Below are positions 6,228-32,000 of a stretch of 32,000 nt of DNA, in pieces. The DNA lies in contig NZ_LNTB01000001.1 in NCBI RefSeq assembly GCF_001462395.1, positions 210,001 through 242,000 on the forward strand, in the 5' to 3' direction. Source of the DNA: Pyrodictium occultum (lineage in GTDB: Archaea > Thermoproteota > Thermoprotei_A > Sulfolobales > Pyrodictiaceae). Below the pieces are notes generated by a model. It had not been told where the DNA came from, ran no database searches, and was given only the letters and a program-made list of their open reading frames with translations. Made by a program: the position numbers and the translations under genes. Every line of letters starts with the position of its first letter. The first letter of the stretch is position 1.

Positions 6228-7145
6228 CTAGACGCGCTCTATCCTCTCAGTGCCGAAGATCCCGTAAGGCTTGGCCAGGAGCACGAGCAGCATGATGAGG
6301 TACGCTGCGGCCTCGTGGACCCCCACCAGGTCCAGGCCGGCGGCCCGCAGGTAGGGCTCGAGGAACATGACCAGCTGCTCCGACAGCCCGAGCGCCAGGC
6401 CGCCGACTATTATCCCGGCCACGGTGTCGAGGCCAGCGAGCAGGCTGGCGGCCAGCGCCTTGATCGCGTAGACCTCCAGCACGGGGCTCAGGTTGGCCTC
6501 CAGGGCCACCGCGACCGCCGCCAGGCCCCCCGCCGCGCCGGCCAGCCCCCAGCTCAGCATGGTCAACGCCTTCACTGGGATCCCGTAGGCGGCGGCCCCG
6601 TAGGCATCCTCCGAGGCAGCCCTCATTGCAACCCCTAGCCTGGTGAACCTGTGTACAGCGGCCACCAGCGCGACCACGCCAGCCCCCGCGGCGAGGGCTG
6701 CCAGGTCGGAGGCGGAGAGCACCACCGAGCCGGCCGCTACCCTGAAGCTGCTGTTGAGCAGGCTCGCCTGCGGCACGCTACCCCCGCCGAGGTACATCGA
6801 GACGCCCTTGAGCACGTAGTAGACGCCGAGCGTGGCTGCTATCAGCGCCGCCGGCGGCCTGCCGCGGAGGGGCCTGGCCACTAGCCTCTCCACCGCAGCG
6901 CCGACGGCGAAGCCCACCGCCGCCGCCACGAGGGCTCCTGCCGCCAGCCCTAGCCCGGCCTTCACCGCGGCGAGGTAGGCGGTTACGGCTGTGAGCAGGA
7001 CCAGCGCCGGGTGGGCGAAGTTTATCGACTTGCTCACACGGTAGACTATATTGTAGCCTAGCGCCAGCGCCGCGTAGACCACGCCTATCACTATGCCCGA
7101 CACCGCATATGATGCGAGCTGCCCCAGCACGCTCAAGGCATGCAC
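6228..7145 (-). CDS. livH: HAAT-family ABC transporter permease, LivH type
   Basis: Polytopic membrane protein with LivH-like segments (GIVIGVVYAALALGYNIVY, INFAHPA, GVAMRAASEDAYGAAAYGI). Confidence 0.85.
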   Translation of the reverse strand: MHALSVLGQLASYAVSGIVIGVVYAALALGYNIVYRVSKSINFAHPALVLLTAVTAYLAAVKAGLGLAAGALVAAAVGFAVGAAVERLVARPLRGRPPAALIAATLGVYYVLKGVSMYLGGGSVPQASLLNSSFRVAAGSVVLSASDLAALAAGAGVVALVAAVHRFTRLGVAMRAASEDAYGAAAYGIPVKALTMLSWGLAGAAGGLAAVAVALEANLSPVLEVYAIKALAASLLAGLDTVAGIIVGGLALGLSEQLVMFLEPYLRAAGLDLVGVHEAAAYLIMLLVLLAKPYGIFGTERIERV

Positions 7146-9157: not shown

Positions 9158-9160
9158 GGC

Positions 9161-9988
9161 TCAGCCACCTATGTAGGCCTCTATCACGCGGGGATCGTTC
9201 GCCACCTTGGAGGGCGGGCCCTCGGCTATAACGCGGCCGGAGTCCATCACCACGACGCGGTCGCAGAGGTCCATGACAACCTCCAGGTCGTGCTCTACGA
9301 GCACGAAGGAGATGCCCCTGGTCTCGTTGACCTCCACTATGGCCCGTGCCAGGTCCTCCTTCTCCTCCCTGCTCAGCCCAGCCATGGGCTCGTCCATGAG
9401 GACTACCTTCGGGTCCTGGGCCAGCGCCCTCGCCAGGTCGACGCGCTTCTGCACGCCCGGCGGGAGCCCCTCCACAACCCGGTCACGGTACTCGTGGAGC
9501 TCGAGGAGGTCTATGACCCTCTCGGCCTTCTCCCTGGCCCACTCCTCCCAGCGCTGCGCCCTCGGCGTCCAGAAGGCGGCGTCGATGATGCTGTAGCTCC
9601 TCCACGGCTCCAGCCCGGCCATTATGTTCTCCACGACGGTCATGTGGCGGAACAGCTCGCTGTGCTGGAAGGTCCTGGCGAGCCCCAGCCTGGCCCTCGC
9701 GTGGGGCGGGAGCCTCGTGATGTCCCTGCCCTCGAACACCACCCTGCCCTTCCTCGGCTTGTAGAAGCCCGAGACCACGTTGAGGAGACTGGTCTTCCCC
9801 GCCCCGTTGGGGCCTATAACCGCGAGTATCTCGCCTGGGCGGAGCCTGAAGCCGGCTCCGTCGACAGCCACTACGCCGCCGAACTCTACCCTCACGTCCT
9901 CGACTTCCAGTATGTAGTCTATGCCAGCCTGGGGCTTCTCCCGGTACAGGCTGCCCTCCTGCCAGAGGGAGCGGTAATCGAAGCCCAT
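9161..9988 (-). CDS. livG: HAAT-family ABC transporter ATP-binding protein, LivG type
   Basis: Walker A GPNGAGKTS and Walker B VVLMDEPMAGL. Start placed at ATG 9988 (MGFDYRS..). The track's GTG at 10084 sits 4-13 nt from the TATA island and is rejected. Confidence 0.85.
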   Translation of the reverse strand: MGFDYRSLWQEGSLYREKPQAGIDYILEVEDVRVEFGGVVAVDGAGFRLRPGEILAVIGPNGAGKTSLLNVVSGFYKPRKGRVVFEGRDITRLPPHARARLGLARTFQHSELFRHMTVVENIMAGLEPWRSYSIIDAAFWTPRAQRWEEWAREKAERVIDLLELHEYRDRVVEGLPPGVQKRVDLARALAQDPKVVLMDEPMAGLSREEKEDLARAIVEVNETRGISFVLVEHDLEVVMDLCDRVVVMDSGRVIAEGPPSKVANDPRVIEAYIGG

Positions 9989-10088
9989 CACCCTCCCATG
10001 CTCCTTAGCAGCGGAGAACAAAACGCACCATCTCGCCGCACCCCAGCCGGAGTAGTGCCGCTCCAGCGTCCCCGTGTTGCACACGCCC

Positions 10089-10116
10089 TTTTAAGCATCT
10101 TTTTATCATTCTAGTT
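10089..10116. promoter_or_regulatory. Divergent AT-rich promoter island between livG and the AMP-binding gene
   Basis: CTTTTAAGCATCTTTTTATCATTCTAG is the only AT-rich stretch in this GC-rich intergenic region. TATA-like boxes can be read on both strands. Confidence 0.45.
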
Positions 10117-12343: not shown

Positions 12344-12437
12344 GGCGGGTACAGCCTCCTAGGTCCCCGGGGGATCCCTATCGGTGACCGGGACCCGGGA
12401 CCCTGTATAAGAGTTTGGCCCTCGGGGCTGGGGGCGG

Positions 12438-13715
12438 CTAGCGGAGCAGCTCGCGGGGGTCAGTTATCCTCCCCGTCGCAGCCGCCGCGGCCGCCGTGTA
12501 GGGGCTGGCCAGGTATACCCTCGCGCTGGGCGGCCCCATGCGGCCTGGGAAGTTCCTGTTGCTCGTCGATACCACCACTTCGCCCTCGCCTGCAACCCCC
12601 ATGTGGGCTCCGAAGCAGGCGCCGCAGCCCGGCGGGGTGATCACAGCCCCCGCCTCGTGGAGGACCTGGAGCAGGCCGCTGCGGAGCGCCATGTCGTAGA
12701 TCCTCCTGCTCGCCGGCGTCACTATCAGCCTGGCCCTGGCCCTCCGGCCCTTCAGTATCCTGGCTGCAGCCTCCAGGTCCTCGAGGCGGCCGTTGGTGCA
12801 GCTACCTATGAACACCTGGTCCACCTCGGTGCCCTCCACCTCCTCCACGGGGGCCACGTTGTAGGGCGCCGGGGGCTTAGCGACCATGGGCACGGTCTCG
12901 CCCAGGTTGATCTCGACGCTCTCCTCCCCGGGCCCTGGCTCCACCCTCAGCTCCCCGGCTCCGGGCGGCGGCTCCCTCCCCCTCGTCGCCCGGTACCACT
13001 CAGCCGCCACCCCGTCGAAGGGGAAGAGGGCCGTCTTAGCCCCGGCCTCCACCATCATGTTCGACACGGTGAGCCTGTCGCTCACCCCGAGGCGGGCGAG
13101 CCCCGGGCCGTGGAACTCGACGCTCCGGTAGAGGAGGCCGTCGCCGCCGAAGAAGCCTAGGAGCCGGAGCGCCAGGTCCTTCCCCGTAACCCCCTCCCCC
13201 AGGGAGCCGGTCAGCTCTATGTAGACGGGCTCGGGTACCCTCAGCCAGAGCCTCCCGGTTACAGCGGCGTAGGCCGCCTCGGTGCTTCCTATCCCCGTGG
13301 AGAACACGGAGAGAGCCCCGTAGGTTATCGTGTGGCTGTCGGCGCCGAGCACAAGCCAGCCCGGCTCAACGAGCTCCTCCACCGCCGCCTGGTGCATTAT
13401 CCCGTAGCCCACGTCCCAGAGGCGGCAGCCCCTGCTCCTGGCCAGCTCCCTCAGCATACTATGCCCCGTCGCCGCGGCGGCGGTCGGGGCGGGGCTGTAG
13501 TGGTCGAAGGCAAGCACTACCCTCGGCTGCTGCCTCCTACAGTCTAGGAGCTTCTCAGCCCCGGTCTCCCTGAGCACCCTGAGCGCCAGCAGCCCGGTCA
13601 CGTCGTTCATCAGCACGGCGTCGGGCTCCACCACCACTATGTCGCCGGGCCCCAGGCCGCCCCGGGGCCTCTCCACCGCGTGGGCCTCTATGATGCGCTG
13701 GGCGAGGCTCGGCAA
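12438..13715 (-). CDS. leuC: 3-isopropylmalate dehydratase / homoaconitase large subunit (aconitase family)
   Basis: Aconitase-family motifs: GADSHT, FIGSCTNGRLEDL, PGCGACFG, STSNRNFPGRMG. TTG start. Confidence 0.9.
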   Translation of the reverse strand: MPSLAQRIIEAHAVERPRGGLGPGDIVVVEPDAVLMNDVTGLLALRVLRETGAEKLLDCRRQQPRVVLAFDHYSPAPTAAAATGHSMLRELARSRGCRLWDVGYGIMHQAAVEELVEPGWLVLGADSHTITYGALSVFSTGIGSTEAAYAAVTGRLWLRVPEPVYIELTGSLGEGVTGKDLALRLLGFFGGDGLLYRSVEFHGPGLARLGVSDRLTVSNMMVEAGAKTALFPFDGVAAEWYRATRGREPPPGAGELRVEPGPGEESVEINLGETVPMVAKPPAPYNVAPVEEVEGTEVDQVFIGSCTNGRLEDLEAAARILKGRRARARLIVTPASRRIYDMALRSGLLQVLHEAGAVITPPGCGACFGAHMGVAGEGEVVVSTSNRNFPGRMGPPSARVYLASPYTAAAAAATGRITDPRELLR

Positions 13716-13722
13716 CGCGGGC

Positions 13723-14715
13723 CTACCCTAGGAACTCTGTGACAGCCTTCGCGTACTCCATCGTGGTGAGGCTGCCGCCTAGGTCGGGGGTCGAGTAGCC
13801 CTCCTCGAGGGCCTGCTCCACGGCCCTCTCCACGGCGAGCGCCGCCTCCTGGTAGCCGAGGTGCCGGAGCATCATGGCCGCCGAGAGGATCATGGCTGTT
13901 GGGTTCGCTATGCCCTTCCCGGCTATGTCCCAGGCGGCGCCGTGGACGGGCTCGAAGAGAGCCTTCTCGTCGCCCAGGTTGGCGGAGGGGGCCAGCCCTA
14001 TGCCCCCCGCCACCTGGGCGGCCAGGTCGCTGAGTATATCCCCGTACTGGTTCATGGTGAGCACCACGTCGAACCTAGTGGGGTTACGCACCATCTCCAT
14101 GGCGGCCGCGTCGACGTACATCTCGTCGACCTCCACGCCCTCCTCCTCCAGCACCTTGCGGGCAACGCTGCGGAAGAGGCCGTCGGCGACCCGGAGCACG
14201 TTAGCCTTATGGACTATCGTCACCCTGCCCGAGCGGGCCCTGGCGTAGCGTGCAGCGATCCTGGCAACCCTCCTCGTCTCAGCCTCCGTGACCACCTTGA
14301 CCGCGAAGGCGGCTCCGGGCACGCTGAACTCTATCCCCGCGTAGACGTCCTCGAGGTTCTCCCTCACTATAACCAGGTCTATCGGGGCCACGCTAGCCAC
14401 GCCCGGGAGGCTGCGGGCCGGCCTAATGTTCGCGTAGACCCCCAGCTCTCTACGGAGCCCCACAACCACTATCCCCGCGGTCTCGCCGACGGGGCCCTTC
14501 AGCACGACATCGGCCCAGTTCTTGGCGAGGGCGAGGGTCTCCCTGGGGAGCGGCTCACCATACTTCTCCGCAGCTGTGTCGCCTGCCTCGGCGTAGCGCA
14601 TCTCAAGCTCCACACCGTAGCGGTCCATAACCCTCTCAAGCACATGCATGGTAGCCCGGGTTATCTCCGGGCCTATCCCGTCGCCGGGTATCACGAGCAC
14701 CCGTGGGGGAGCCAA
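13723..14715 (-). CDS. leuB: 3-isopropylmalate dehydrogenase (beta-decarboxylating dehydrogenase family)
   Basis: VIPGDGIGPEI, ANIRPA, IVRENLEDVY, NQYGDILSDLAA, EPVHGAAWDIAGKGIANP. Start moved to TTG 14715 (GTG 14700 also possible), because the track's GTG at 14766 lies in the TATA-like GCATATAC box at about 14768-14775. Confidence 0.88.
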   Translation of the reverse strand: MAPPRVLVIPGDGIGPEITRATMHVLERVMDRYGVELEMRYAEAGDTAAEKYGEPLPRETLALAKNWADVVLKGPVGETAGIVVVGLRRELGVYANIRPARSLPGVASVAPIDLVIVRENLEDVYAGIEFSVPGAAFAVKVVTEAETRRVARIAARYARARSGRVTIVHKANVLRVADGLFRSVARKVLEEEGVEVDEMYVDAAAMEMVRNPTRFDVVLTMNQYGDILSDLAAQVAGGIGLAPSANLGDEKALFEPVHGAAWDIAGKGIANPTAMILSAAMMLRHLGYQEAALAVERAVEQALEEGYSTPDLGGSLTTMEYAKAVTEFLG

Positions 14716-14858
14716 GACACGGCACCACCGGAGCGCGAGCCTACTCCCACACCACCAGGGCTCCACGTATATGCATCATGTGCCTCTAGGGGGCTACACC
14801 GGTGAACCCTCGGTGATGGTGAAAGAGAGGGGTGTCGCGGGCCGCGAGGGGGCGGGGG

Positions 14859-15998
14859 CTACACCTGCCCGGGGACCGCCACGCGCCCCCTCTCGGCCAT
14901 GTACTCGGCCACCCAGCCTGCAAGAGTGTCCTCGTCGACCTTCTTCATCCTTGGAGCCGCCTCCTTCAGCTTGTTCAGTATGTGCTTCACCAGGCCGGGT
15001 TCCGGGGTGAAGCCCATCCTACTCAGCGCCCACTCCACCGCCGCCCTGCCGCTGTGGCGGCCCAGCACTATCCTCCTCTTGTTGCCCACCGCCTCAGGCT
15101 CTATCGGCTCATAGGTGGCGGGGTTCCGGAGCACGCCGTGGACGTGTATACCCGCCTCGTGGGCGAACGCGTTCCTGCCGACGATAGCCTTGTTGGGCGG
15201 GACCTCGACGCCGAACTTCCTGGCTACAAGCCTCGAGACGGGAGTCAGCAGCTCCAGCCTCACCCCGGTCCTCCTGCCCATCAGGAAGTGGAGGGCGGCC
15301 ACAACCTCCTCCAGCGCCGCGTTGCCGCCCCTCTCGCCGAAGCCGTTCACGGTCACCTGGACCCCGTCGGCCCCGGCCCGGAGGCCTGCCAGCGTGTTAG
15401 CGGTAGCCAGTCCGAAGTCGTCGTGGCAGTGCACGTCTATCCACACGCCCGGGGGTAGGCTGCCGCGGACCAGGCTGACCAGCCACTCCATGTACCACGG
15501 GGTTGCGGTGCCCACGGTGTCGGGTATGTTGATGTACCTGGCGCCCGCCTCCACCACCGCCCTGTAGACCTGCACGAGGAAGCCGGGGTCGCTCCTGGTA
15601 GCGTCCTCGGCGGAGAAGAGGACCATGGCGCCATAGCTACGGGCCCTCTCGACGGCCTCAACGGCGCGCTTAATCACCTGCTCTCTTGTCATCCTCAGCT
15701 TGTACTTCATGTGCACATCGCTGGTGGCTATGAACACGTGGATTATATGGGCCTCCGCCGCCGCGGCCTCGTCAACGTCCCTTGGGCTGGCCCTGGCCAG
15801 GGCAGCTATCCTGGCGCGCGTGGCCTCGCGCACAGCAGCCTGTACAGCCCTCCGGTCTATCTCGGAGGAGGCGGGGAACCCTGCCTCTATGATGTCGACG
15901 CCCAGCTCGTCTAGCGCCCTCAGTATCTCGATCTTGTCCTTCAGGTCCAGCTCGACTCCGGGCATCTGGTCTCCGTCGCGGAGGGTTGTATCGAACAC
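14859..15998 (-). CDS. leuA: 2-isopropylmalate synthase / homocitrate synthase family enzyme, short form without the C-terminal LeuA regulatory domain
   Basis: FDTTLRDGDQ at the N-terminus and HCHDDFGLATANTLAG (DRE-TIM/HMGL-like). Only 379 aa. GTG start at 15998. Confidence 0.85.
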   Translation of the reverse strand: MFDTTLRDGDQMPGVELDLKDKIEILRALDELGVDIIEAGFPASSEIDRRAVQAAVREATRARIAALARASPRDVDEAAAAEAHIIHVFIATSDVHMKYKLRMTREQVIKRAVEAVERARSYGAMVLFSAEDATRSDPGFLVQVYRAVVEAGARYINIPDTVGTATPWYMEWLVSLVRGSLPPGVWIDVHCHDDFGLATANTLAGLRAGADGVQVTVNGFGERGGNAALEEVVAALHFLMGRRTGVRLELLTPVSRLVARKFGVEVPPNKAIVGRNAFAHEAGIHVHGVLRNPATYEPIEPEAVGNKRRIVLGRHSGRAAVEWALSRMGFTPEPGLVKHILNKLKEAAPRMKKVDEDTLAGWVAEYMAERGRVAVPGQV

Positions 15999-15999
15999 C

Positions 16000-16031
16000 C
16001 TTACGCGAGTTCCACTTTCGGCTGCACCTCC
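16000..16031 (-). promoter_or_regulatory. SD plus 4-codon uORF cassette immediately upstream of leuA
   Basis: Minus strand reads GGAGGTGCAGCCGAAAGTGGAACTCGCGTAAG. The uORF GTG GAA CTC GCG TAA (16015 down to 16001) ends 2 nt before the leuA GTG. It matches 16274-16305 at 26 of 32 positions. Confidence 0.4.
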
Positions 16032-16096
16032 TCGCCGCGCGGCCCCAGGCCCTGAACGGGCCCCGGGCCGCGTGGGCCTAGCCGGCCACGCCTAGG

Positions 16097-16149
16097 CTGT
16101 TTTAAAGTCTTTTCTACATGATAAAGTGCCTGGGCAAAGTTTTAATAGG
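16097..16149. promoter_or_regulatory. Divergent leuA / ilvB promoter island
   Basis: AT-rich GTTTTAAAGTCTTTTCTACATGATAAAGTGCCTGGGCAAAGTTTTAATAGG. TATA-like boxes at 16099-16107, 16120-16126 and 16139-16149. Confidence 0.5.
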
Positions 16150-16204
16150 GGGAGCCTGGTGGGCGCAAGTCTACCTGCCTCAGCCCTTCTGGGCTCCGCT
16201 AGGC

Positions 16205-16265
16205 GCAGGAGGTGGTCTGGATGTCAAACGTCCCGGCGTAGCAGGAGGTGGTCCGGATGTCAAAC
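16205..16265 (+). repeat. 25-nt direct repeat (2 copies, 36-nt period) in the ilvB leader
   Basis: GCAGGAGGTGGTC[T/C]GGATGTCAAAC at 16205-16229 and 16241-16265, 24 of 25 identical. Confidence 0.9.
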
Positions 16266-16273
16266 ATTTGGTA

Positions 16274-16305
16274 GGGGGTGCAGCCGGAAATGGAACTCGT
16301 ATGAG
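16274..16305 (+). promoter_or_regulatory. SD plus 4-codon uORF cassette overlapping the ilvB start
   Basis: GGGGGTGCAGCCGGAAATGGAACTCGTATGAG. The uORF ATG GAA CTC GTA TGA (16290-16304) has a stop that overlaps the ilvB ATG at 16301 (ATGA). Confidence 0.4.
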
Positions 16306-18079
16306 CCGTGTAGTGGACCACGTGGCCCGGGTCCTTAGGGAGCTCGGGGTTAGGGAGGTATTCGGCGTAACCGGCGGCAGTATAATGGGGTTCTTCGACG
16401 CCCTGGCCCTCGAGGGTATCGAGATCTACATGTTCAGGCACGAGCAGGGCGCCGCCCACGCGGCCGACGCCTACGGCAGGGTGGCCCGCAGGCCGGGCGT
16501 CGTGTCGGTGACCAGCGGTCCCGGCGCGACCAACATAGTGACCGGGATAGCCAACGCCTACTTCGACTCCGCGCCGGTGCTCGCGATAACGGGGCAGGTG
16601 CCGACAAGCGTCTTCGGCCGCGACGCGTTCCAGGAGACTGATATAGTCGGCGTCACCGCGCCAATCACCAAGTTCGTCTACCAGGTTAGGAGCCCCGGGG
16701 AAGCGGGCCCCGCGGTGAGGACCGCCTACCGCCTCGCCATCGAGGGGCGGCCCGGCCCTACCCTGGTCGACTTCCCGAGGGACGTGCAGCTGAGCAGCCA
16801 CGAGCCGGCCGACGAGCCTGACTACCTGCCGCTGAACTTCGCCAAGTACCGTCCCCCGCCGCCCGATCCCGAGGCGGTGGCTAGGGCGGCCCGGCTGCTC
16901 CTAATGGCGGCCCGCCCCGTGATACTCGTTGGCAACGGCGTCTACTGGTCCGGCGCCACCGCCGAGGTGCTGGAGCTCGCTGAGAGGCTCCAGGCCCCGA
17001 TAGTGACGACGCTGCCGGGCAAGAACGCGGTGCCCGCCGACCACCCGCTGGTGATGGGGCCAGCGGGGATGCACGGCCGTGCCGAGGCTGACGCGGCCCT
17101 CGCCAACGCCGACGTGGTGCTCGCCGTGGGCACCAGGTTCTCGGACCGCACGGTGGGGAGGTTCGGCCCCGAGCTGCTGGAGAAGAAGATAATCCATATA
17201 GACGCGGACCCGAGCGAGCACGGGAAGAACGTGCCCCCCGCAGTCAGCGTGGTGGCGGACGCGAGGCAGGCCCTCCGAGCCCTGCTGAGGGAGATCAGGG
17301 CAGCGCCGCTCCGCGACACGAGGTTCCTAGAGTGGCTCAACTGGATCCGCCGCCGCTACGAGGAGGCCATGGAGAAGCTCGCGGCCAGGTTCAGGAAGTT
17401 CCCGCCCTGGAAGGTGCTGAAGACGCTGAGGCAGGCCGTGCCCCGGAACGCTATAACGGTGACCGGGGTCGGCAGCCACCAGATGTGGGCCGAGCAGCAC
17501 TGGGACGTCTACGTGCCCGGTACATGGATTACGAGCGCCGGCCTGGGCACTATGGGGTTCTGCGTCCCAGCGGCGCTCGGGGCCAAGATAGCGGCCCGGG
17601 ACCGCACGGTGCTCTGCATCGACGGCGACGGGAGCTTCCAGATGACCATGAACAACCTGGCCCTGGTGAGGGACTACGACCTCCCGATAATAGTGACTGT
17701 GTTCGACAACCGGGCCCTCATGCTGGTGAAGCAGTGGCAGATCTACATGTACGACCGGAGGATAGTAGCCACGGAGTACAGCAGGTGGCCCTGCTTCGAG
17801 AAGATAGCCGAGGCGTATGGCATAGATGCTGTCCGGCCGGCGAGCCTCGAGGAGCTCGAGGCCGCCGTCCGCCGTGCCGCCAGGAACAACGAGCCGCTGA
17901 TAGCTATAGTTGATATCGACCGGGAGGAGGATATAGTGCTGCCCTGGGTGAAGCCCGGCGACTGGCTCACCGAGGCCATACTGCCGCCGGGCATGGAGGA
18001 TGTAAGCCTCGTCTACGACGAGAAGGAGTGGGAGAAGGTGGCCTCGGCGATAGCAGCCAAGACCGCCAGGAGTGGGTGA
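16301..18079 (+). CDS. ilvB: Acetolactate synthase (acetohydroxyacid synthase) large subunit, ThDP-dependent
   Basis: N-terminal VFGVTGGSIMGFFDAL, and the ThDP motif IDGDGSFQMTMNNL. Start set at ATG 16301, where similarity to the family begins. The track's ATG at 16118 lies inside the TATA island. Confidence 0.9.
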   Translation: MSRVVDHVARVLRELGVREVFGVTGGSIMGFFDALALEGIEIYMFRHEQGAAHAADAYGRVARRPGVVSVTSGPGATNIVTGIANAYFDSAPVLAITGQVPTSVFGRDAFQETDIVGVTAPITKFVYQVRSPGEAGPAVRTAYRLAIEGRPGPTLVDFPRDVQLSSHEPADEPDYLPLNFAKYRPPPPDPEAVARAARLLLMAARPVILVGNGVYWSGATAEVLELAERLQAPIVTTLPGKNAVPADHPLVMGPAGMHGRAEADAALANADVVLAVGTRFSDRTVGRFGPELLEKKIIHIDADPSEHGKNVPPAVSVVADARQALRALLREIRAAPLRDTRFLEWLNWIRRRYEEAMEKLAARFRKFPPWKVLKTLRQAVPRNAITVTGVGSHQMWAEQHWDVYVPGTWITSAGLGTMGFCVPAALGAKIAARDRTVLCIDGDGSFQMTMNNLALVRDYDLPIIVTVFDNRALMLVKQWQIYMYDRRIVATEYSRWPCFEKIAEAYGIDAVRPASLEELEAAVRRAARNNEPLIAIVDIDREEDIVLPWVKPGDWLTEAILPPGMEDVSLVYDEKEWEKVASAIAAKTARSG

Positions 18080-18085
18080 GCCCTG

Positions 18086-18328
18086 ATGGAGGCGGGGCGG
18101 TACGTGATAGAGGTCTCGGCGTTCAACGGCATGGATGCCGTGATGAGGCTGGCGAATATGGCTAGGAGGGCTAAGCTGGAGTACCATGGGCTCAGCGCCA
18201 GCTTCGACGGGAGGGTGGTGAGGCTCCGGATAGACGCCTCGGGGAGGGAGAGCGAGGTGCGCTGGCTGGCGGCGAAGATCGAGAAGATGCCGGAGGTCTA
18301 CTCGGTGGTCTACAAGAGGGTGGCCTAG
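18086..18328 (+). CDS. ilvN: Acetolactate synthase small (regulatory) subunit, single ACT-domain form
   Basis: 80-aa ACT-like pattern (YVIEVSAFNGMDAVMRLANMARRAKLEYHGLSA..RLRIDASG). Lies 6 nt downstream of ilvB. Confidence 0.65.
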   Translation: MEAGRYVIEVSAFNGMDAVMRLANMARRAKLEYHGLSASFDGRVVRLRIDASGRESEVRWLAAKIEKMPEVYSVVYKRVA

Positions 18329-18355
18329 ACCCCCTGGACCGGCTTCCCAGGTTAG

Positions 18356-19480
<1,125 letters not shown>

Positions 19481-19483
19481 GCC

Positions 19484-21214
19484 GTGCCGGCGCTGCGCAG
19501 CAGGGAGATCCGGGAGGGGCCGCGCCGGGCGCCCCACCGCAGCCTGATGCTGGCGGCGGGGCTGGACGAGAGCGACGTCTACGACACCGGCAAGCCCCTG
19601 ATAGGGGTTGTGAACACTTTCTCCACGATAGTGCCGGGGCACGTGATGCTGGACAAGCTGGTAGCAGCGGTGACTGAGGGGATACGGGAGGCCGGCGGCG
19701 TGCCGGTGCACGCCGGCGCGGTCTCGGTGGACGACGGGATAGCGATGGGCCACGAGGGGATGAGGTACAGCCTCGTGGCCAGGGAGAACGTTGCGGACGC
19801 GGTGGAGATCTTCGCGGAGGCCCACCGGCTCGATGGCGTGGTGGTGGTCACGGCCTGCGACAAGATGCTCCCCGGCGCCCTGATAGCGGCGGCCAGGCTG
19901 AGGGACAAGATACCGGTGTACATCGTTAACGGCGGCCCCATGCTCTCGGGCCGGGGGGCCGGCGGGGGCTGCTGCATAGCCCTGGGCCACGTGTTCGAGG
20001 CCGTCGGCGCCTACCTCGCCGGCAAGATAACGGGGGAGCAGCTCCGCGAGATAGAGATGAGGGCGCTGCCCACACCCGGCAGCTGCGCCGCCATGTACAC
20101 CGCCAACACCATGGCGGTGGCGGCGGAGGCCATGGGCTTCATACTCCCCGGCGCGGCCGCGATCCCGGCAGTCTACTCCAGGAGGATCCACGTTGCCAGG
20201 GAGACGGGGAGGCTGGCGGTCAGGGCAGCCCTCAAGGGCTGGAAGGCCTCCATGTTCCTCGGCAAGCGCTCCATCCTAAACGCGCTCGCGGTTGACGCTG
20301 CGGCGGGGGGTTCGACCAACACGCTCCTCCACCTCGCGGCCGTGGCGGCGGAGGCGGGCGTGGATCTAGACATGGGGGAGGTGGAGGAGCTGCTCTCCAA
20401 GACGCCCTGGCTCGCCGACCTCGAGCCCGGCGGCCGCTACTACATGGAGCACCTCTACCAGGCCGGCGGCGTCCCCGCGATAGTCAGGGAGCTGGCTAAG
20501 GCAGGGGCCTTCGATGCGTCCATGCCAGCCGCCACCGGGGAGCCCTGGAGCAGGGTGCTCGAGCGCCTGCCCCCGGCGCCGGGGGCCCCGGTGGTGAGGA
20601 GGGCTGAGCAGCCGCTGCAGCCCCGCAGCCCGCTCCGCATCCTGCGCGGCAGCCTGGCCCCCGGCGGCGCGGTGATCAAGGCGGTCCGGATATCGAGGAC
20701 CAGGTTCGAGGGCCCGGCCAGGGTCTACGAGGCCGAGGAGGAGGCGGTGGAGGCGCTGGAGAGGGGCGAGATACGCGAGGGCGACGTGGTGGTGGTCCGC
20801 TACGAGGGCCCGGCGGGCGGCCCCGGGATGAGGGAGATGTTGCAGCTGACCTCGATGATATACGGTATGGGGCTGGGCGACAGGGTCGCGCTGGTGACCG
20901 ACGGGAGGTTCAGCGGCGCCACGAGGGGCCTCGCGGTCGGCCACGTGTCCCCCGAGGCCATGGCGGGGGGCCCGATAGCCCTGGTGAGCGACGGCGACAG
21001 GATAGTCATAGACCTGGAGAGGGGGAGGATAGACCTCCTCGTCGACCAGGAGGAGCTGGAGGAGAGGAGGAAGCGGTGGCGCGTGCCAGAGAGCGTGGCG
21101 GAGAGGCACCGGAGGCTGGCGGAGAGGGGGAGCGTGCTCCACGCCTACAGTCTCATGGCCTGCAGCGCTGACCGAGGTGGAGCGAGGCGTTGCCCCAGGA
21201 GGCAGGCCTGGTGA
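19484..21214 (+). CDS. ilvD: Dihydroxy-acid dehydratase
   Basis: IlvD/Edd motifs [34 protein letters not shown] start 3 nt after the ilvC stop. Confidence 0.92.
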
Positions 21215-21705
21215 GGGGGCGTGCGCTTGTAGTGGGGGACAACGTGGACACCGACACGATCATACCGGCCCGCTACCTGCACTCCACTGACCCCCGGGAG
21301 CTTGCCCGCCACGTGTTCGAGGACGCCCCTGGCATCCGGGCTAGGCTCGACGGGCTCGAGAAGCCGGTGGTGATCGTGGCGGGCCGGGGCTTCGGCTACG
21401 GGAGCAGCAGGGAGCACGCGGTGCTCGCGCTCAAGGCGGCCGGGGTGGCGGCGGTGGTGGCCGAGAGCTTCCACAGGATATTCTACCGGAACGCGCTGAA
21501 CAACGGGCTCCCCGTGGTGGAGGCGAGCCTCCGCGGCTCGACGCGGGACGGCTCGCTGGTCGAGATAGACCTGGAGACCGGCGAGATAAGGGTGGACGGC
21601 CGCCTAGCCGCCAGGGCCAGGCCGCTGCCCCCCATGCTCCGCAGGCTGCTCGCCGCGGGCGGGCTGAGGGAGGAGCTGCGCCGCCTGGCGGCCGGCAGCG
21701 GCTAG
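21211..21705 (+). CDS. leuD: 3-isopropylmalate dehydratase small subunit
   Basis: [15 protein letters not shown] and [16 protein letters not shown] at 21211 overlaps the ilvD stop (GTGA), with GGAGG at 21198-21202. TTG at 21190 is an alternative start. Confidence 0.88.
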
Positions 21706-23081
21706 CCCCGCTCCCTCCTTCCAAGCCCTCTTATAGCCCTCTCCACGTCCTCCGGCAGCGGCCTGATCAGCCCAGCCTCGCGGAGCAGCCTCATCTTCTC
21801 CAGCGTCGCCTTAATTATGCTGCTGGCCCTCTCCAGCTCCTCCTCGTAGCTCAGCCGTAGCCTCGCAACCCCCTGCTCCACCGCCTTCGCCGCCGCGGCG
21901 GCCGCCACTCTCGGGAAGACCTCCCACTCCTCCATGCTCGGTATTATGTAGTCCTCGCGGAGCCCCCGCTCCTCGGCGAACCTTGCCAGCTCCTCCGCCG
22001 CCGCGATAGCCATCTCATCCGTTATCGTGCGGGCCCTGACGTCCAGCACCCCCCGGAAGATCGAGGGGAAGGCTAGGCTGTTGTTAACCTGGTTGGGCAG
22101 GTCGCTCCTCCCCGTGGCTACCACCCTCGCTCCAGCGCTCTTGGCCTCCCAGGGCCAGATCTCCGGCACTGGGTTGGCCTCGGCGAAGACTATGGGGTCC
22201 CGGTTCATCCTCCTTATCCACTCCGGTTTCAGCACCCCGGGGCCGGGCCTGGAGGCAGCGACCACGGCGTCGGCGCCCTCGAGGGCCTCGGGTATCCCTC
22301 CCCCGCGGAGCCCGCGCCACCCGCCGCCGGTCTCGATGGCTATCCTGTACTTCCACGGGTTCTTCTTCCTCAGCTCCTCGATATCACTCCTCTCCGGGTG
22401 GAGCACCCCCCGCGAGTCGACTGCAACTATGTTGCCTGCGGGCACCCCGTAGGCTCTCAGCAGCCGGTAGAGGGCCACGTTGGCGGCGCCAACGCCGACC
22501 AGGACTATCCTCATCTCCCTGAGGCTCCGCCCCGTCAGCTTGGCCGCGTTTATCAGCCCCGCGAGCGTGACTGTGGCGGTGCCCTGCTGGTCGTCGTGCC
22601 AGACGGGGATGTCCAGCCTCCTCCTCGCCTCCTCCAGGATGTAGAAGCACTTGGGGCTCTCGATATCCTCGAGGTTCACCCCGCCGAAGCTCGGCTCGAC
22701 GAGCTCGAGCAGCTCGAGGAACTTCCCAGGATCCCTGGCCCGGTGGACTAGGGGGATGGCGTCGACTCCCCCGAGCGCCTTGAAGAGGAGAGCCTTCCCC
22801 TCCATGACGGGGAGCGCTCCCTCGGGCCCGATGCTGCCGAGGCCCAGCACCCTGGTGCCATCGCTCACAACAGCCACCGTGTTCCAGCGCCAGGTGTTGT
22901 GGAAGGTCTGCTCCGGGTCCTCGGCGTCCTCCCGCGCAGGGCCGGCCACACCGGGGGTGTACCAGATGGCGTAGTCCTCCTGCCTCTCGGCCGGCACCTT
23001 GGGTATGACCTCTATCTTCCCCTCGTAGAGCCTATGCAGCCTGCGGGATATAGTGTACCAGTCTACCCTCTCCCCGCTCAA
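21702..23081 (-). CDS. NAD(P)-dependent malic enzyme (oxaloacetate-decarboxylating malate dehydrogenase)
   Basis: YTPGVA, VVSDGTRVLGLGSIGPEGALPVMEGKALLFK, VWHDDQQGTA, LVGVGAAN. Confidence 0.9.
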   Translation of the reverse strand: MSGERVDWYTISRRLHRLYEGKIEVIPKVPAERQEDYAIWYTPGVAGPAREDAEDPEQTFHNTWRWNTVAVVSDGTRVLGLGSIGPEGALPVMEGKALLFKALGGVDAIPLVHRARDPGKFLELLELVEPSFGGVNLEDIESPKCFYILEEARRRLDIPVWHDDQQGTATVTLAGLINAAKLTGRSLREMRIVLVGVGAANVALYRLLRAYGVPAGNIVAVDSRGVLHPERSDIEELRKKNPWKYRIAIETGGGWRGLRGGGIPEALEGADAVVAASRPGPGVLKPEWIRRMNRDPIVFAEANPVPEIWPWEAKSAGARVVATGRSDLPNQVNNSLAFPSIFRGVLDVRARTITDEMAIAAAEELARFAEERGLREDYIIPSMEEWEVFPRVAAAAAAKAVEQGVARLRLSYEEELERASSIIKATLEKMRLLREAGLIRPLPEDVERAIRGLGRRERG

Positions 23082-27088: not shown

Positions 27089-27339
27089 GTGACCGAGGAA
27101 AAGGTCTACGGGCTCGAGGCCGAGTGGAGCAGGCTAGGCCCCAGGGACCTCGCGGGGACCATGACAAGGCTCGAGGCTAAGCTCGAGCACCTCCCCCTTG
27201 CCCGGAGGGGCTACGCCCGGTGCCCGTGGTCTACGCCCGCGAGCTGGCCGGCGAGCCCTGGGAGGGGGGGGCCTACAGCCTCGAGGACGTGGTCAAAGAT
27301 GTCGGGAGGACACGGGTCCACCGGCTTCCCCCGCCCTAG
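27089..27339 (+). pseudogene. Possible frameshifted small ORF
   Basis: The GTG frame reads VTEEKVYGLEAEWSRLGPRDLAGTMTRLEAKLEHLP. After the C5 run at 27193-27197 the -1 frame reads coding-like PEGLRPVPVVYARELAGEPWEGGAYSLEDVVKDVGRTRVHRLPPP, with a stop at 27337-27339. The original frame degenerates and would overlap feoB. Confidence 0.2.
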
Positions 27340-27365
27340 GCCCGGGGCCCTGGGGCGCCGGCGCC

Positions 27366-29540
27366 CTAGAGGATCGTGGCCAGCGCTCTCACCGCGAAGG
27401 CGGCCGCGGTGGCGAGGGCTAGGTCGTAGCCCAGCGCCGCTAGGGTTAGCCTCCAGCTCCTAGTCTCCCCGTAGATCGTGCCGAGGGTGGCGACGCAGGG
27501 TATGTATAGGGTCGTGGCGAGCATGAGCGCCAGCACCTGCCACGGCTGGAGGGCGTAGGCCTTCAGCGTAGCGTACTCGCCCGCGGCCTGCCCCTGGACG
27601 GGCGCCACCGCCGCCAGGGAGTCGAGGAACACCTCCTTGGCTATGAAGCCGCCGAGGAGCCCGAAGCCTATCCTCCAGGCCCTCTCGTAGTCCACGCCCA
27701 GCATGAGCTGCACGTACGGCGCCATCGCCCTGCCTATGCTTGCCCCGTAGCTCTCGGCTGCGCCGCCGGCCTCGCCGAGGTAGCCCTGTGGCCCATAGTT
27801 CGCGAGCAACCAGAGCACTATGCTCACCGCCACTATCACCGTGCCGGCCCTCACGAGGAAGTGGCGGAGCTTGTCCCAGGTGAACCACCACACCACCCTC
27901 CCACTCGGCCTCTTCGTGGGAGGCAGCTCTATCGCTATCTCGCTGGCCTTCCCGCCCTTAAGCCTGGTGAACAGCTTAAGCGTCACCAGGAAGAGGATTA
28001 TCGATATCAGGTAGACGGTGAACACAGCCAGCGCCCTCTCCACCGCGCTGTGGAAGTAGACGGTCGCCAGTGCTAGGAGCACTGTGAGTCTGGCGCTGCA
28101 CGGCACCAGGGGCAGGGCGAACGCGACCGCCCTTCTCTCCGTAGGGGAGTCCATTATCCTCGCCGAGATGACGCCGGGCACGTTGCAGCCCAGGCTGAGC
28201 ATGGCGGGGAAGACGGCCTTTCCGCTGACCCCGAATAGGCGGAAGAGCCTATCAACCCCCACGGCTAACCTGGGCAGCAGGCCGGAGTCCTCGAGGGCGC
28301 CTATAAAGGCCATTATCACGGCTACCAAGGGGATGAAGGTGAGCACCAGGCCCAGGCCGTAGCCGGAGGAGAGCAGGCCCTCGCCCAGCATCCGGGCCAG
28401 CACCGGGTTGGGTATAGCGCCCTCCACCTGCTCCGCCAGCCAGTCCATAACAACGGCTACCAGGTTCTGCAGGCTATACTCATCAACCAAGTCGGCGGCT
28501 CCCGTGTAGCCCAGGTGCCTCAATATATCATCGAGAGGCCACCCGCTCGCCACGGAGAAGGTGGCGAGGAAGATGAGGAAGAGTGTCCCGAGGCTGACCA
28601 GGGGGCCCAGCACCGGGTGGAGGAACACCAGGTCGAGCCTCGACAGCCCCAGCGCCGCCTGGCCCTCCTCCCGGGCCCTGGGCCTGTGGGCCACGTACCT
28701 CTCGTAGAGCCTGGAGGCGTAGTCATACCTCCTCTTGACAAGCTCTATGGCCAGGTCTATGCCTCTCCCCCGCAGCTCCTCCCGGATCCTCTCAGCCTCC
28801 TCGGCCACCCTCCTGGCCCTCTCCGGCCCTAGCAGCTTCTCGAGGTAGCGCGGGACCCAGTCATGCCCCTCCAGGAGCTTCACGGCCAGCCAGCGCGCAC
28901 GCGCAGGCTCCAGCACCCCTTCATCCGAGCCTGTTATGAGGCCGGCTAGTCTCTCCACGTAGGGCTTCAGGTCCCCGAGCAGCATGTCCAGCAGCGGCCC
29001 CTTCCCGCGGCGGACGGGCTTCCGGATAACCACCTCCAGCAGCTTATCGATACCCAAGTCCTTCAGTGCGCTCACCAGTACCACTGGGACTCCGAGCTCC
29101 CTCTCCAGGCCCTCCACGTCCACCTCTATGCCGCGCTCGCCCAGCATGTCAGCCTTAGTTATCACAACCACCACGTTGTCGAATGCCTCCAGCAGCTCTA
29201 GGGGGAGAGCGAGCCCCCTCTCCAGCGCGGCGCCGTCGGCTAGGGTTATTATCACGTCAGGCCGGTTCTCCAGGAGGAAGTTCCTCGTGACCTCCTCCTC
29301 TGCCCCGGTGCCGCTGGTGCTATAGACCCCGGGGAGGTCCACGACGCAGACCACGCGGTCCCCGAGCCTTATGTGGGCTACCTTCATCTCGACGGTGGCC
29401 CCCGGCCAGTTGGCCACCAGCTCGCTGGAGCCGGTAAGCCTGTTGAACAGCGTGGTCTTCCCGCTGTTGGGCGCGCCCACGAGGGCTGCTACCACGTCGC
29501 AGCCCCGTCTCCCCCCGGCGGCCGGCACTCCAGCCACCAC
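27366..29540 (-). CDS. feoB: Ferrous iron transport protein B
   Basis: N-terminal G-domain (GAPNSGKTTLFNRLTG, DLPG, ITKAD) followed by a polytopic permease domain of FeoB length. GTG start about 32 nt downstream of a TATA-like box. Confidence 0.92.
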   Translation of the reverse strand: MVAGVPAAGGRRGCDVVAALVGAPNSGKTTLFNRLTGSSELVANWPGATVEMKVAHIRLGDRVVCVVDLPGVYSTSGTGAEEEVTRNFLLENRPDVIITLADGAALERGLALPLELLEAFDNVVVVITKADMLGERGIEVDVEGLERELGVPVVLVSALKDLGIDKLLEVVIRKPVRRGKGPLLDMLLGDLKPYVERLAGLITGSDEGVLEPARARWLAVKLLEGHDWVPRYLEKLLGPERARRVAEEAERIREELRGRGIDLAIELVKRRYDYASRLYERYVAHRPRAREEGQAALGLSRLDLVFLHPVLGPLVSLGTLFLIFLATFSVASGWPLDDILRHLGYTGAADLVDEYSLQNLVAVVMDWLAEQVEGAIPNPVLARMLGEGLLSSGYGLGLVLTFIPLVAVIMAFIGALEDSGLLPRLAVGVDRLFRLFGVSGKAVFPAMLSLGCNVPGVISARIMDSPTERRAVAFALPLVPCSARLTVLLALATVYFHSAVERALAVFTVYLISIILFLVTLKLFTRLKGGKASEIAIELPPTKRPSGRVVWWFTWDKLRHFLVRAGTVIVAVSIVLWLLANYGPQGYLGEAGGAAESYGASIGRAMAPYVQLMLGVDYERAWRIGFGLLGGFIAKEVFLDSLAAVAPVQGQAAGEYATLKAYALQPWQVLALMLATTLYIPCVATLGTIYGETRSWRLTLAALGYDLALATAAAFAVRALATIL

Positions 29541-29566
29541 CTCCAGAACCCAGAGGGGGGCGCCAC

Positions 29567-29589
29567 CTCTTTAAGCCCTGTTAAAATGC
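29567..29589. promoter_or_regulatory. AT-rich island upstream of feoB, with TATA-like boxes readable on both strands
   Basis: CTCTTTAAGCCCTGTTAAAATGC. The minus-strand GCTTAAAGAG fits a leaderless feoB transcript. The plus-strand TTTAAG and GTTAAAAT could drive a rightward transcript. Confidence 0.4.
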
Positions 29590-29748
29590 AAGTGGAATTT
29601 GTGTCGGAATGAATGCAGATACGGGTACCGCCAGCCTTGCACCGTGGCCGGCGCGGTACTCGAGCCATCGGGGGGCTGCGCTTGACAGGGCACCCCCGTC
29701 CCGGCGGCACCCCTGCTTATCGTCAATGCCTGGGGCTGCTCCAGGTAA

Positions 29749-30186
29749 CCCGGGGGCCCGCGCCCTCGCTGCGGGGGGGGGGACAGCCATAGACCTTGGA
29801 ACGTGCGCCGAGAGCGGGGGCGAGGCGGTGGCAAGGCCGTGGCCGGGGCCTTGTGGAGTCATCCTCCTACCCCGCGCCTACCCCTAGAGGAGGCCGGCAG
29901 GGCTTACAGGGAATGCCCGAGGGCCGCGTTATAGGCCGCGCCGCCCTCCCGGCCCCCGGGGTGGCCCCCCGGGGGCCCGCGCCCTCGCTGCGGGGGGGGG
30001 GACAGCCATAGACCTTGGAACGTGCGCCGAGAGCGGGGGCGAGGCGGTGGCAAGGCCGTGGCCGGGGCCTTGTGGAGTCATCCTCCTACCCCGCGCCTAC
30101 CCCTAGAGGAGGCCGGCAGGGCTTACAGGGAATGCCCGAGGGCCGCGTTATAGGCCGCGCCGCCCTCCCGGCCCCCGGGGTGGCCC
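29749..30186 (+). repeat. Perfect tandem duplication, 2 x 219 bp
   Basis: 29749-29967 and 29968-30186 were compared base by base and are identical. Each copy contains a G10 run, hairpins and the TATA-like GTTATAGG. Confidence 0.95.
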
Positions 30187-30478
30187 GGCTATGGTGGTGG
30201 ACCTGGGCTTCGAGTTATCCTACCTGCTCAGTGACGCGCTCGGCCGGAGGGTGGAGGTCCAGGGCTACAGCTTCGACCCGGGGAAGGCGCTGCTCTGCAT
30301 AGACGCGCTCGTGGAGGGCAGGGGCCCGAGGAGGCTATGGTGGTGGACCTGGGCTTCGAGTTATCCTACCTGCTCAGTGACGCGCTCGGCCGGAGGGTGG
30401 AGGTCCAGGGCTACAGCTTCGACCCGGGGAAGGCGCTGCTCTGCATAGACGCGCTCGTGGAGGGCAGGGGCCCGAGGA
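30187..30478 (+). repeat. Perfect tandem duplication, 2 x 146 bp, directly abutting the 219-bp duplication
   Basis: 30187-30332 and 30333-30478 are identical. The unit covers 4 nt of leader plus the first 142 nt of the small ORF. Confidence 0.95.
30191..30448 (+). pseudogene. Frameshifted upstream copy of the small ORF, created by the 146-bp duplication
   Basis: The first 47 codons are identical to ORF 30337-30606. It then reads out of frame into the second copy (..RRLWWWTWASS..). Confidence 0.5.
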
Positions 30479-30606
30479 AGGCCTGCATAGAGGTTAAGCC
30501 GTGCCGGGGCCTCCGGGAGGAGGCCAGGTGGGCCCGCTGCGTGTCCAAGACACTGGTACACGCGAGCGGGCTCGTGGAGAGGCTGGCCGGGCTCCTGGAG
30601 GGCTAG
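30337..30606 (+). CDS. Small hypothetical protein (89 aa), intact copy
   Basis: MVVDLGFELSYLLSDALGRRVEVQGYSFDPGKALLCIDALVEGRGPRKACIEVKPC.. Coding-like composition. No family recognised. Confidence 0.5.
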   Translation: MVVDLGFELSYLLSDALGRRVEVQGYSFDPGKALLCIDALVEGRGPRKACIEVKPCRGLREEARWARCVSKTLVHASGLVERLAGLLEG

Positions 30607-32000
30607 CCTCCGGGCTTCCGGAGCCTCGCTATGAAGTACCCGGTCGCCCGGTGGATGCTCGGGTGCACCCTTATGGCGTGCTCGCCGTAGAAGCCTATGC
30701 CCCGGCTGAAGCGCCTGGGCCAGGCCTCCTCGAGGCGGAGGCCCAGCTCCTCCACGGCGTAGCGCATATTCTCCTCGTTCTCGCGGAGCGTCATGGTGCA
30801 GGTGGAGTAGACCAGCACCCCGCCGGGCCGGAGGAGCCGCTGGGCGGCGCGGAGGAACCGCCTCTGGTACCGGGCGGCGGCCTCCACGTCGCGCAGCGTC
30901 TTCCGGTCCCAGACCTTGGGTATCACGCCGAGGCTGCTGCAGGGAGGGTCGAGGATAACATAGTCCGCCACCCCGGCGCCCAGTATCCTGTCAAGCCTCC
31001 TGGAGTCGGCGCGCAGCACCTCCACCCGGTGCCCCAGCCTCCTCACCTCCTCCCTGAGCCTCTCCACCTTGCCCCTGGAGTGGTCGACAGCCACCACCCG
31101 CACCCTGCCCCCGGCCAGCTCGTAGACGTGGCCGGTCTTCCCTCCCGGCGCCGCGCACATGTCTACGACCAGGGAGCCGGGCTCCGGGGATACTTGGGTA
31201 TCACGCCGAGGCTGCTGCAGGGAGGGTCGAGGATAACATAGTCCGCCACCCCGGCGCCCAGTATCCTGTCAAGCCTCCTGGAGTCGGCGCGCAGCACCTC
31301 CACCCGGTGCCCCAGCCTCCTCACCTCCTCCCTGAGCCTCTCCACCTTGCCCCTGGAGTGGTCGACAGCCACCACCCGCACCCTGCCCCCGGCCAGCTCG
31401 TAGACGTGGCCGGTCTTCCCTCCCGGCGCCGCGCACATGTCTACGACCAGGGAGCCGGGCTCCGGGGATAGGACGTGGGCGGCCATCATGGAGGAGATGC
31501 TCTGCTCGTATATCGCGCCGCTCCTCCACCACCGGGTCTCCCTGAGGCTGGGCACCCGGTAGAGGGGCTGGACGTTCTCCACCACCAGGCCCCGCCGCGC
31601 CCGGAGAGCGGCCGGAGCCTCCTGGGCCACCACCCCCAGGGCTACGGCGGCGCCGTTCTCCGCTACAACCAGCACCTCCCTGCCCGGCCGGGCGCAGTCC
31701 TCGAGCCGGACCACGCCGGGGGCGTACACGTGGGCGCCGAGCATAACGCTCTCGGCAGCCCTCTTGTCCACCACCACCCTGCAGCCCGGGTCCCGGAGCC
31801 TCGCTGGCCCCTCGACGGGTATCCAGAGCGCCTCCTCCAGCAGCTCGTCGCGGTGCACCGGGTAGCCCTCCTTCCTCATCTCGTCGAGCAGCTCCCCGGG
31901 GTCGGCGCGGAGGGTGTTGACCCGGAAGTAGTAGCGGGACGGCGGCGCGGCGAGGGCCTCGAGGAGCCTGGGGAGCCCGTGGCGGCCATAGACCCTCTCA
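30603..32000 (-). pseudogene. NOL1/NOP2/Sun (RsmB-like) RNA cytosine-C5 methyltransferase with a PUA-like domain. The frame is broken by the 278-bp duplication, and the 5' end lies beyond the window.
   Basis: N-region ..YYFRVNTLRADPGELLDEMRKEGY stays open to position 32000. PUA-like VVVDKRAAESVMLGAHVYAPGV, SAM motif DMCAAPGGKT, catalytic DPPCS and YSTCT. As sequenced it splits into ORFs 31163-31879+ and 30603-31160. Removing one repeat copy restores a single frame (..GVIPK|VWDRK..). Confidence 0.85.
30915..31470 (-). repeat. Perfect tandem duplication, 2 x 278 bp, internal to the methyltransferase gene
   Basis: 30915-31192 and 31193-31470 were compared base by base and are identical. 278 is not a multiple of 3. 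Confidence 0.95.

Follow-up and report, generated by a model that had tools for sequence, protein, structure and literature searches.

Near the end of the window, that is, the whole stretch of 32,000 nucleotides of Pyrodictium occultum analyzed here, three segments designated A, B, and C are each present twice in direct succession within 1.7 kb. Is this cluster a rearrangement of the genome, or did it enter the sequence when the draft was put together? The first-pass annotation regarded the locus as a hotspot of three independent duplication events and offered three options: serial template switching or replication restart at a fragile, GC-rich site, a rearrangement acquired in culture, or an artifact. 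We address these options using the structure of the repeats, assemblies of other read sets of the same strain, and the published history of the deposit.

Structure of the repeats and genes at the locus

The duplications were called by repeat search, by TRF, and by direct reading of the letters (Table 1). As initially described, there are three perfect two-copy tandem repeats (219, 146, and 278 bp), with 100% identity between the copies. Perfect repeats of 146-278 bp cannot have arisen by chance. The second copy of A meets the first copy of B exactly at 30186/30187, and the resulting order A-A-B-B with a common boundary corresponds to the earlier description. We also hold the earlier argument to be correct that this order is not explicable by one simple slippage or unequal-crossover event. 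Beyond the copies of A, B, and C, no exact repeats of at least 25 nt were found elsewhere in the 32 kb, and TRF detected no other long-period arrays in the window, in agreement with the statement that comparable repeats are missing from the remainder.

Microhomology amounts to 0 nt at each of the junctions A/A, B/B, and C/C, where single-base extension fails on either side; the first-pass annotation had noted none of more than 1-2 nt. It had also noted that terminal inverted repeats and a transposase are missing, which the repeat search and the list of open reading frames (ORFs) bear out. Target-site duplications of transposons are typically about 2-15 bp long and flank the inserted element. 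The repeats described here resemble them in being direct repeats, but differ in unit length (146-278 bp) and in having nothing between the copies. Transposon insertion was rejected because the copies follow each other directly and neither terminal inverted repeats nor a transposase ORF was found. A CRISPR-like array was also rejected.

The locus is positioned between feoB and a minus-strand gene for a PUA and RsmB/F methyltransferase that runs past the window end. Between them lies a small ORF of 89 amino acids, for which there was no Pfam match and no function was assigned. In the single-copy arrangement, a TTATA motif at 29929 is located 43 nt upstream of its ATG and may represent a promoter. 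A complete copy of this ORF persists because the 146-bp duplication contains its start codon. Rfam was searched across all 32 kb at the gathering threshold, and across positions 29450-30700 with E values up to 1. The sole match in these scans was a tRNA-Arg; neither A nor B, nor the sequence close to them, yielded a structured RNA.

As 278 is not divisible by three, the duplication of C splits the methyltransferase gene into fragments encoding 316 and 185 amino acids, the former composed of 307 native residues followed by the junction tail YPRSPAPWS. Both fragments are annotated as separate NCBI proteins on one contig of 1,501,248 bp. The intact protein is a 410-amino acid PUA/RsmB-F (NSun6-like) RNA m5C methyltransferase, and its relatives carry the UniRef name tRNA (cytosine(72)-C(5))-methyltransferase. 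Among the matches listed, its nearest named relatives are from Pyrodictium delaneyi (78%), Hyperthermus butylicus (63%), and Pyrolobus fumarii (54%). Of the 120 closest relatives listed, nearly all have a full-length protein (about 380-410 amino acids), and two P. delaneyi genomes encode an intact one of 387 amino acids. In a scan of the genome collection with the intact protein, the only matches were to an Aeropyrum metagenome-assembled genome (MAG), with 46% identity, and to Parabacteroides, the latter unrelated; no relatives were found in JGI metagenome contigs. The suggestion that two genes are knocked out was not upheld: only the methyltransferase gene is split, and the full 89-amino acid ORF persists.

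Table 1. Positions of the repeats, genes, proposed assembly pieces, and comparison contigs, in window coordinates.
Feature	Position	Strand	Description
Segment A copy 1	29749-29967	.	219 bp, intergenic; once in L001, partly in L003
Segment A copy 2	29968-30186	.	100% identical to A copy 1; A = 73 x 3 bp
Segment B copy 1	30187-30332	.	146 bp; start codon and first 47 codons of small ORF
Segment B copy 2	30333-30478	.	100% identical to B copy 1
Segment C copy 1	30915-31192	.	278 bp; methyltransferase residues about 215-307, with SAM-binding DMCAAPGGKT and DPPCS motifs
Segment C copy 2	31193-31470	.	100% identical to C copy 1
feoB	27366-29540	-	724-aa ORF, left neighbor; anchor for locating independent assemblies
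Small ORF, intact	30337-30606	+	89 aa, complete copy despite B duplication
Small ORF, pseudo-copy	30191-30448	+	85 aa; 47 native residues, then out of frame; made by B/B junction
Methyltransferase, C-terminal fragment	30603-31160	-	185 aa = residues 226-410 of intact protein; NCBI P0006
Methyltransferase, N-terminal fragment	31163-32000	-	316 aa; starts about 113 nt past window end; NCBI P0005
Poly-G tract	29773-29782, copy 29992-30001	+	G10 in deposit
Other deposit-specific discrepancies	27264-29829	.	G8 at 27264; SNPs at 27809, 29565, 29600, 29829
Proposed piece P1	everything up to 29967		Last 219 bp = A copy 1
Proposed piece P2	29968-30332		365 bp = A+B; about one MiSeq library fragment; inserted at native A/B boundary
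Proposed piece P3	30333-31192		860 bp; 146-bp overlap with P2, 278-bp overlap with P4
Proposed piece P4	31193 onward		Starts with C copy 2
DRR667394 contig L006	12544-25614		100.000% identity, 13,071 bp
DRR667394 contig L008	3469-12564		99.98%, 9,096 bp: 1 SNP and 1 G-run indel
SRR5453782 contig L009	7020-12384		100% identity, 5,365 bp
ERR15087784 contig L007	15723-18402		100% identity

The locus in other read sets of the strain

Contigs for comparison, taken from Logan assemblies of public read sets, were retrieved by exact-protein matching; the 354-amino acid ORF at 18416-19480 gave no exact match, probably owing to a difference in the called start. What the samples DRR667394, SRR5453782, and ERR15087784 are was judged from sequence identity alone, and by this measure they appear to be essentially the same strain as the deposit, within about 0.01%. 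The proteins encoded just past the window end on the overlapping contig are exactly P. occultum KSW11514-KSW11517 (CF15_01340, CF15_01345), which are encoded on the 1,501,248-bp contig that also carries the two methyltransferase fragments. This places the window in the PL19T draft LNTB01, whose genome paper uses the same CF15_ locus tags. Pyrofollis japonicus, considered earlier as the organism, was rejected on its GC content of 49.4%.

The DRR667394 contig L001 is 11,030 bp long and extends from window position 25643 to 5.3 kb past the window end. It carries A, B, and C once each: position 29967 joins 30333, and 31192 joins 31471. The SRR5453782 contig L003 contains B and C once each, and the same applies to the part of A that it covers. 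Positions 5835-6694 of L001 and 204-1063 of L003 both match window positions 30333-31192 at 100%, and both contigs encode the intact 410-amino acid methyltransferase and the 89-amino acid ORF. After removal of one copy each of A, B, and C, the window differs from L001 by just four SNPs and two G-run length differences.

The junctions themselves are likewise missing. Not one of the 90 junction 31-mers (30 each at A/A, B/B, and C/C) was found in the contigs of DRR667394, SRR5453782, and ERR15087784, and the 31-mers of the native adjacency of A to B at 30186/30187 were present in full (30/30) in both L001 and L003. Only the A/A, B/B, and C/C adjacencies are non-native. The 85-amino acid ORF made by the B/B junction had no match in protein records, and the C/C junction (28 nt) had 0 matches in JGI metagenome contigs. 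According to the first-pass annotation, an artifact would be indicated if all three sites uniformly proved to be single copy. This is what we observed in two same-strain read-set assemblies, which represent the strain as sequenced elsewhere and not the reads or the DNA preparation behind the deposit. Of the three options offered, the artifact is strongly favored by the evidence; a hotspot of three independent duplication events is not supported.

Could the single-copy state itself be the artifact, because the Logan assemblies collapsed genuine duplications? Repeats longer than k are a known difficulty for de Bruijn assemblers. A tandem repeat in two copies, however, gives rise to junction k-mers of its own and to a branch: at k=31, the graph of the window's version has its branch points at exactly 29967, 30332, and 31192. 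Such branches would break a contig, yet L001 is one 11-kb contig with no branch nodes; it contains 0 of the 90 junction 31-mers, and the second run (SRR5453782) agrees. We therefore regard the probability of such a collapse as close to negligible.

A natural recurrent hotspot or a stable Pyrodictium allele would be another possibility, for example, if instability of the G-tract acted as an on-off switch for the small ORF and the methyltransferase. The G10 run reported earlier is indeed present and is copied along with A. Its length varies by data set: G10 in the deposit, G23 in DRR667394, and at least G18 in SRR5453782, whose contig breaks off inside the tract. This variation would fit real homopolymer instability. 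The only other homopolymer of at least 8 nt in the window is the G8 at 27264, which is G6 or G7 elsewhere, such that its length differs in all three data sets. By contrast, the junctions were not found in DRR667394, SRR5453782, the JGI metagenome contigs, or the protein collection, and the orthologous loci of P. delaneyi have neither tandem repeats nor homopolymers of at least 8 nt. Moreover, the duplication boundaries are at least 24 nt away from the G-tract, which lies outside B and C. A natural hotspot is thus very unlikely.

Draft finishing and the probable origin of the duplications

The P. occultum PL19T draft LNTB01 was generated from 22.5 million MiSeq reads with a mean length of 276 bp; SPAdes 3.1.0 yielded 14 contigs of at least 500 bp, and extending these by read mapping, along with superassembly in Geneious, brought the number down to 2 (PMC4767911). 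The reduction from 14 to 2 contigs implies roughly a dozen joins by semi-manual finishing. The genome paper gives no positions for the joins; one of them may lie at or near this locus, a placement supported by the poly-G tract, at which the SRR5453782 assembly breaks.

Based on the same-strain resequencing, we consider it highly probable that the duplications are a finishing artifact, namely unmerged overlaps left in the deposited PL19T draft. Since A/A, B/B, and C/C are the only non-native adjacencies, there is a unique decomposition of the deposit into four pieces, P1-P4 (Table 1). The overlaps between these pieces are exactly the duplicated lengths of 219, 146, and 278 bp, all of which are within one MiSeq read length.

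The single copies elsewhere, the source genome, and the manual joining are established, and for the exact order of the manual finishing steps we infer the following. The native order would be F-A-B-...-C-G, with every segment once. The short-read assembly probably fragmented around the long poly-G in a region of about 70% GC; the tract is a probable cause of the original contig break. Mapped reads would then have been used to lengthen the contig ends and close the gaps, together with "superassembling" in Geneious, and four natively collinear pieces may have been set end to end with their overlaps untrimmed. The copies would be identical as both are consensus sequences from one read pool. The end of P1 and the start of P3 are natively adjacent, so that the simplest reading of A-A-B-B is one block of 365 bp that would have spanned the contig end and been pasted whole at that end. 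A single block of this kind would account for the boundary common to the duplications of A and B.

Some points argue against an artifact. A plain overlap chain would leave the exact abutment of the end of P1 and the start of P3 a coincidence, so that an extra assumption is needed, namely that an original contig ended at 30186/30187 and that P2, as a bridging fragment, was pasted in whole. Overlaps of 146-278 bp with 100% identity are normally merged by Geneious, and manual concatenation or another slip must be assumed.

Errors of this kind have precedents. "Duplicated overlapping contigs" are a known class of assembly error (Kelley & Salzberg 2010, PMC2864568), and false duplications have been described next to gaps and from wrong gap filling (Ko et al. 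2022, PMC9516828). In the cases of both papers, as proposed here, neighboring pieces with common ends were both kept, giving the appearance of a recent duplication; the errors occurred at joins or gaps, produced false gene fragments, and were gone on re-assembly. Here, as there, the duplicates are positioned exactly at the inferred piece boundaries, and a gene is broken into two annotated proteins. Those papers concern diploid vertebrate assemblies with haplotype differences as the cause and usually a gap between the copies. In contrast, the present genome is that of a haploid archaeon, the 100% identical copies abut without Ns, and the likely cause is manual extension and concatenation at a poly-G.

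The most serious alternative is that the 2015 PL19 subculture carried a complex rearrangement near the poly-G, comprising the three duplications and clustered point changes, which other stocks lack. Proposed sources are error-prone template-switching repair or replication restart, or a break into which a homologous fragment of 365 bp was inserted. Both the deposited sequence and its annotation contain the junctions, the 100% identity of the copies is what a recent event would give, and the single-copy data come from read sets other than the deposit's own.

Private SNPs and homopolymer differences are also clustered at the duplications, within 4.2 kb. Positions 27264-31470 account for 12.8% of the length compared but hold nine of the 11 differences between the deposit and DRR667394 (binomial p = 4e-7). 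The SNPs at 27809 and 29829, both of those that the second run covered, are private to the deposit, and the private SNPs are synonymous or intergenic. Such SNPs are compatible with real mutations, which counts in favor of a rearrangement in culture and against an artifact. Break-induced replication (BIR/MMBIR) would yield duplications with clustered point changes. We count the cluster in favor of an artifact, as a local patch of low quality: iterative read-tip extension of a contig end would be expected to leave a small error every few hundred bases beside unmerged overlaps.

FoSTeS/MMBIR and replication slippage can generate small duplications in clusters where replication meets an obstacle, in some cases accompanied by point mutations close by. 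Their junctions normally include a few bases of microhomology, whereas microhomology is 0 nt at all three junctions here and the rearrangement is missing from the contigs of other same-strain read sets. Slippage or microhomology-mediated duplication (MMBIR/FoSTeS) is supported neither by the junction sequences nor by these read sets, which derive from DNA other than the preparation behind the deposit. A culture rearrangement in general would require three events in 1.7 kb with one exact common boundary, would inactivate a methyltransferase that nearly all listed relatives have at full length, and would have left junctions that are untraceable in two other same-strain read sets. The assembly history gives a simpler cause. 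Overall, we judge a rearrangement in the 2015 subculture to be distinctly unlikely. In its most explicit form, it would have been one break-repair or replication-restart event in the 2015 Regensburg PL19 culture of an archaeon growing at 105 degrees C, beside a G-tract of 10-23 nt, with three microhomology-free re-copyings, four substitutions, and two homopolymer changes within 4.2 kb; this form is slightly less likely still.

Implications for the reference genome

At this locus, 643 bp of the PL19T reference (LNTB01/GCA_001462395.1) are very probably spurious, and the NSun6-like tRNA/rRNA m5C methyltransferase is very probably falsely split into the annotated proteins of 316 and 185 amino acids. 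Given the reduction from 14 to 2 contigs, other joins could hold similar unmerged overlaps. Such overlaps elsewhere would make false pseudogenes or "gene fragments" in comparative analyses of the type strain. If the duplications were real, this would be a rare case in which the genome of a hyperthermophilic archaeon had undergone a complex local rearrangement free of microhomology, but the present evidence argues against this. The biological hotspot is most probably not real, and the value of these findings lies mainly in the correction of the P. occultum reference sequence.

Differences between the deposit and re-sequencing

The deposited draft (P. occultum PL19T, LNTB01) was compared with two independent read sets from essentially the same strain, DRR667394 and SRR5453782. 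Outside the zone around tandem duplications A, B and C (27264-31470), the window differs from DRR667394 at two sites only: 3520 (T in the window versus C), at a distance of 51 nt from one end of the Logan contig (an assembly of public reads), and the intergenic position 12424 (G4 versus G3). Within the zone, four single-base differences from DRR667394 are clustered in 2 kb, at 27809, 29565, 29600 and 29829. Since SRR5453782 carries the DRR667394 base at 27809 and 29829, the window bases at these two positions are private to the deposit. The difference at 27809 is synonymous and inside feoB, and those at 29565 and 29600 fall in an AT-rich stretch immediately upstream of feoB, a putative promoter.

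Coordinates of the features discussed
Feature	Window	Strand	Contig positions	Location
720-aa ORF	7952-10114	+		antisense to genes at 7223-9157 (-) and 9161-10084 (-)
Branched-chain amino-acid and related biosynthesis cluster	12438-23081
Second G-run	27264-27271			downstream of feoB
Long poly-G tract	29773-29782, copy 29992-30001		6880-6902 (L001, DRR667394); 1-18 (L003, SRR5453782)	between feoB and the intact 89-aa ORF

Gene content and composition of the window

The biosynthesis cluster is 100% identical between the window and DRR667394. It comprises isopropylmalate/isocitrate dehydrogenase-like and HMGL-like proteins, the large and small subunits of acetolactate synthase, KARI, dihydroxy-acid dehydratase and an aconitase-C-like protein. 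Genes for malic enzyme, a fumarase C-terminal subunit and an F420-ligase-like protein sit next to these. The 720-aa ORF, which had no Pfam match, is a typical high-GC 'shadow' ORF, and the AMP-binding and ABC-ATPase genes opposite it are the real ones. The GC content of the window is 68.2%, compared with 63.4% for the whole genome; the orthologous P. delaneyi locus (contigs L011 and L012) likewise exceeds its genome mean (57% versus 53.9%). The gene neighbourhood, from feoB and the PUA/RsmB-F methyltransferase gene to PIN_6, NAD kinase, Trm5/TYW2, DUF371, PCMT and FEN1, is largely conserved in P. delaneyi.

Length variation of G-runs flanking feoB

All three data sets disagree on the second G-run: the window reads G8, DRR667394 reads G6 and SRR5453782 reads G7. 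Similarly, no two data sets are alike in the long poly-G tract: the deposit has G10, DRR667394 has G23, and SRR5453782, where the tract sits at a contig end, has at least G18. No homopolymer of 8 nt or longer was found in the orthologous P. delaneyi loci. Sequencing difficulty alone could account for the variation in poly-G length; alternatively, this variation could represent genuine homopolymer instability in P. occultum, an organism growing at 105 °C.
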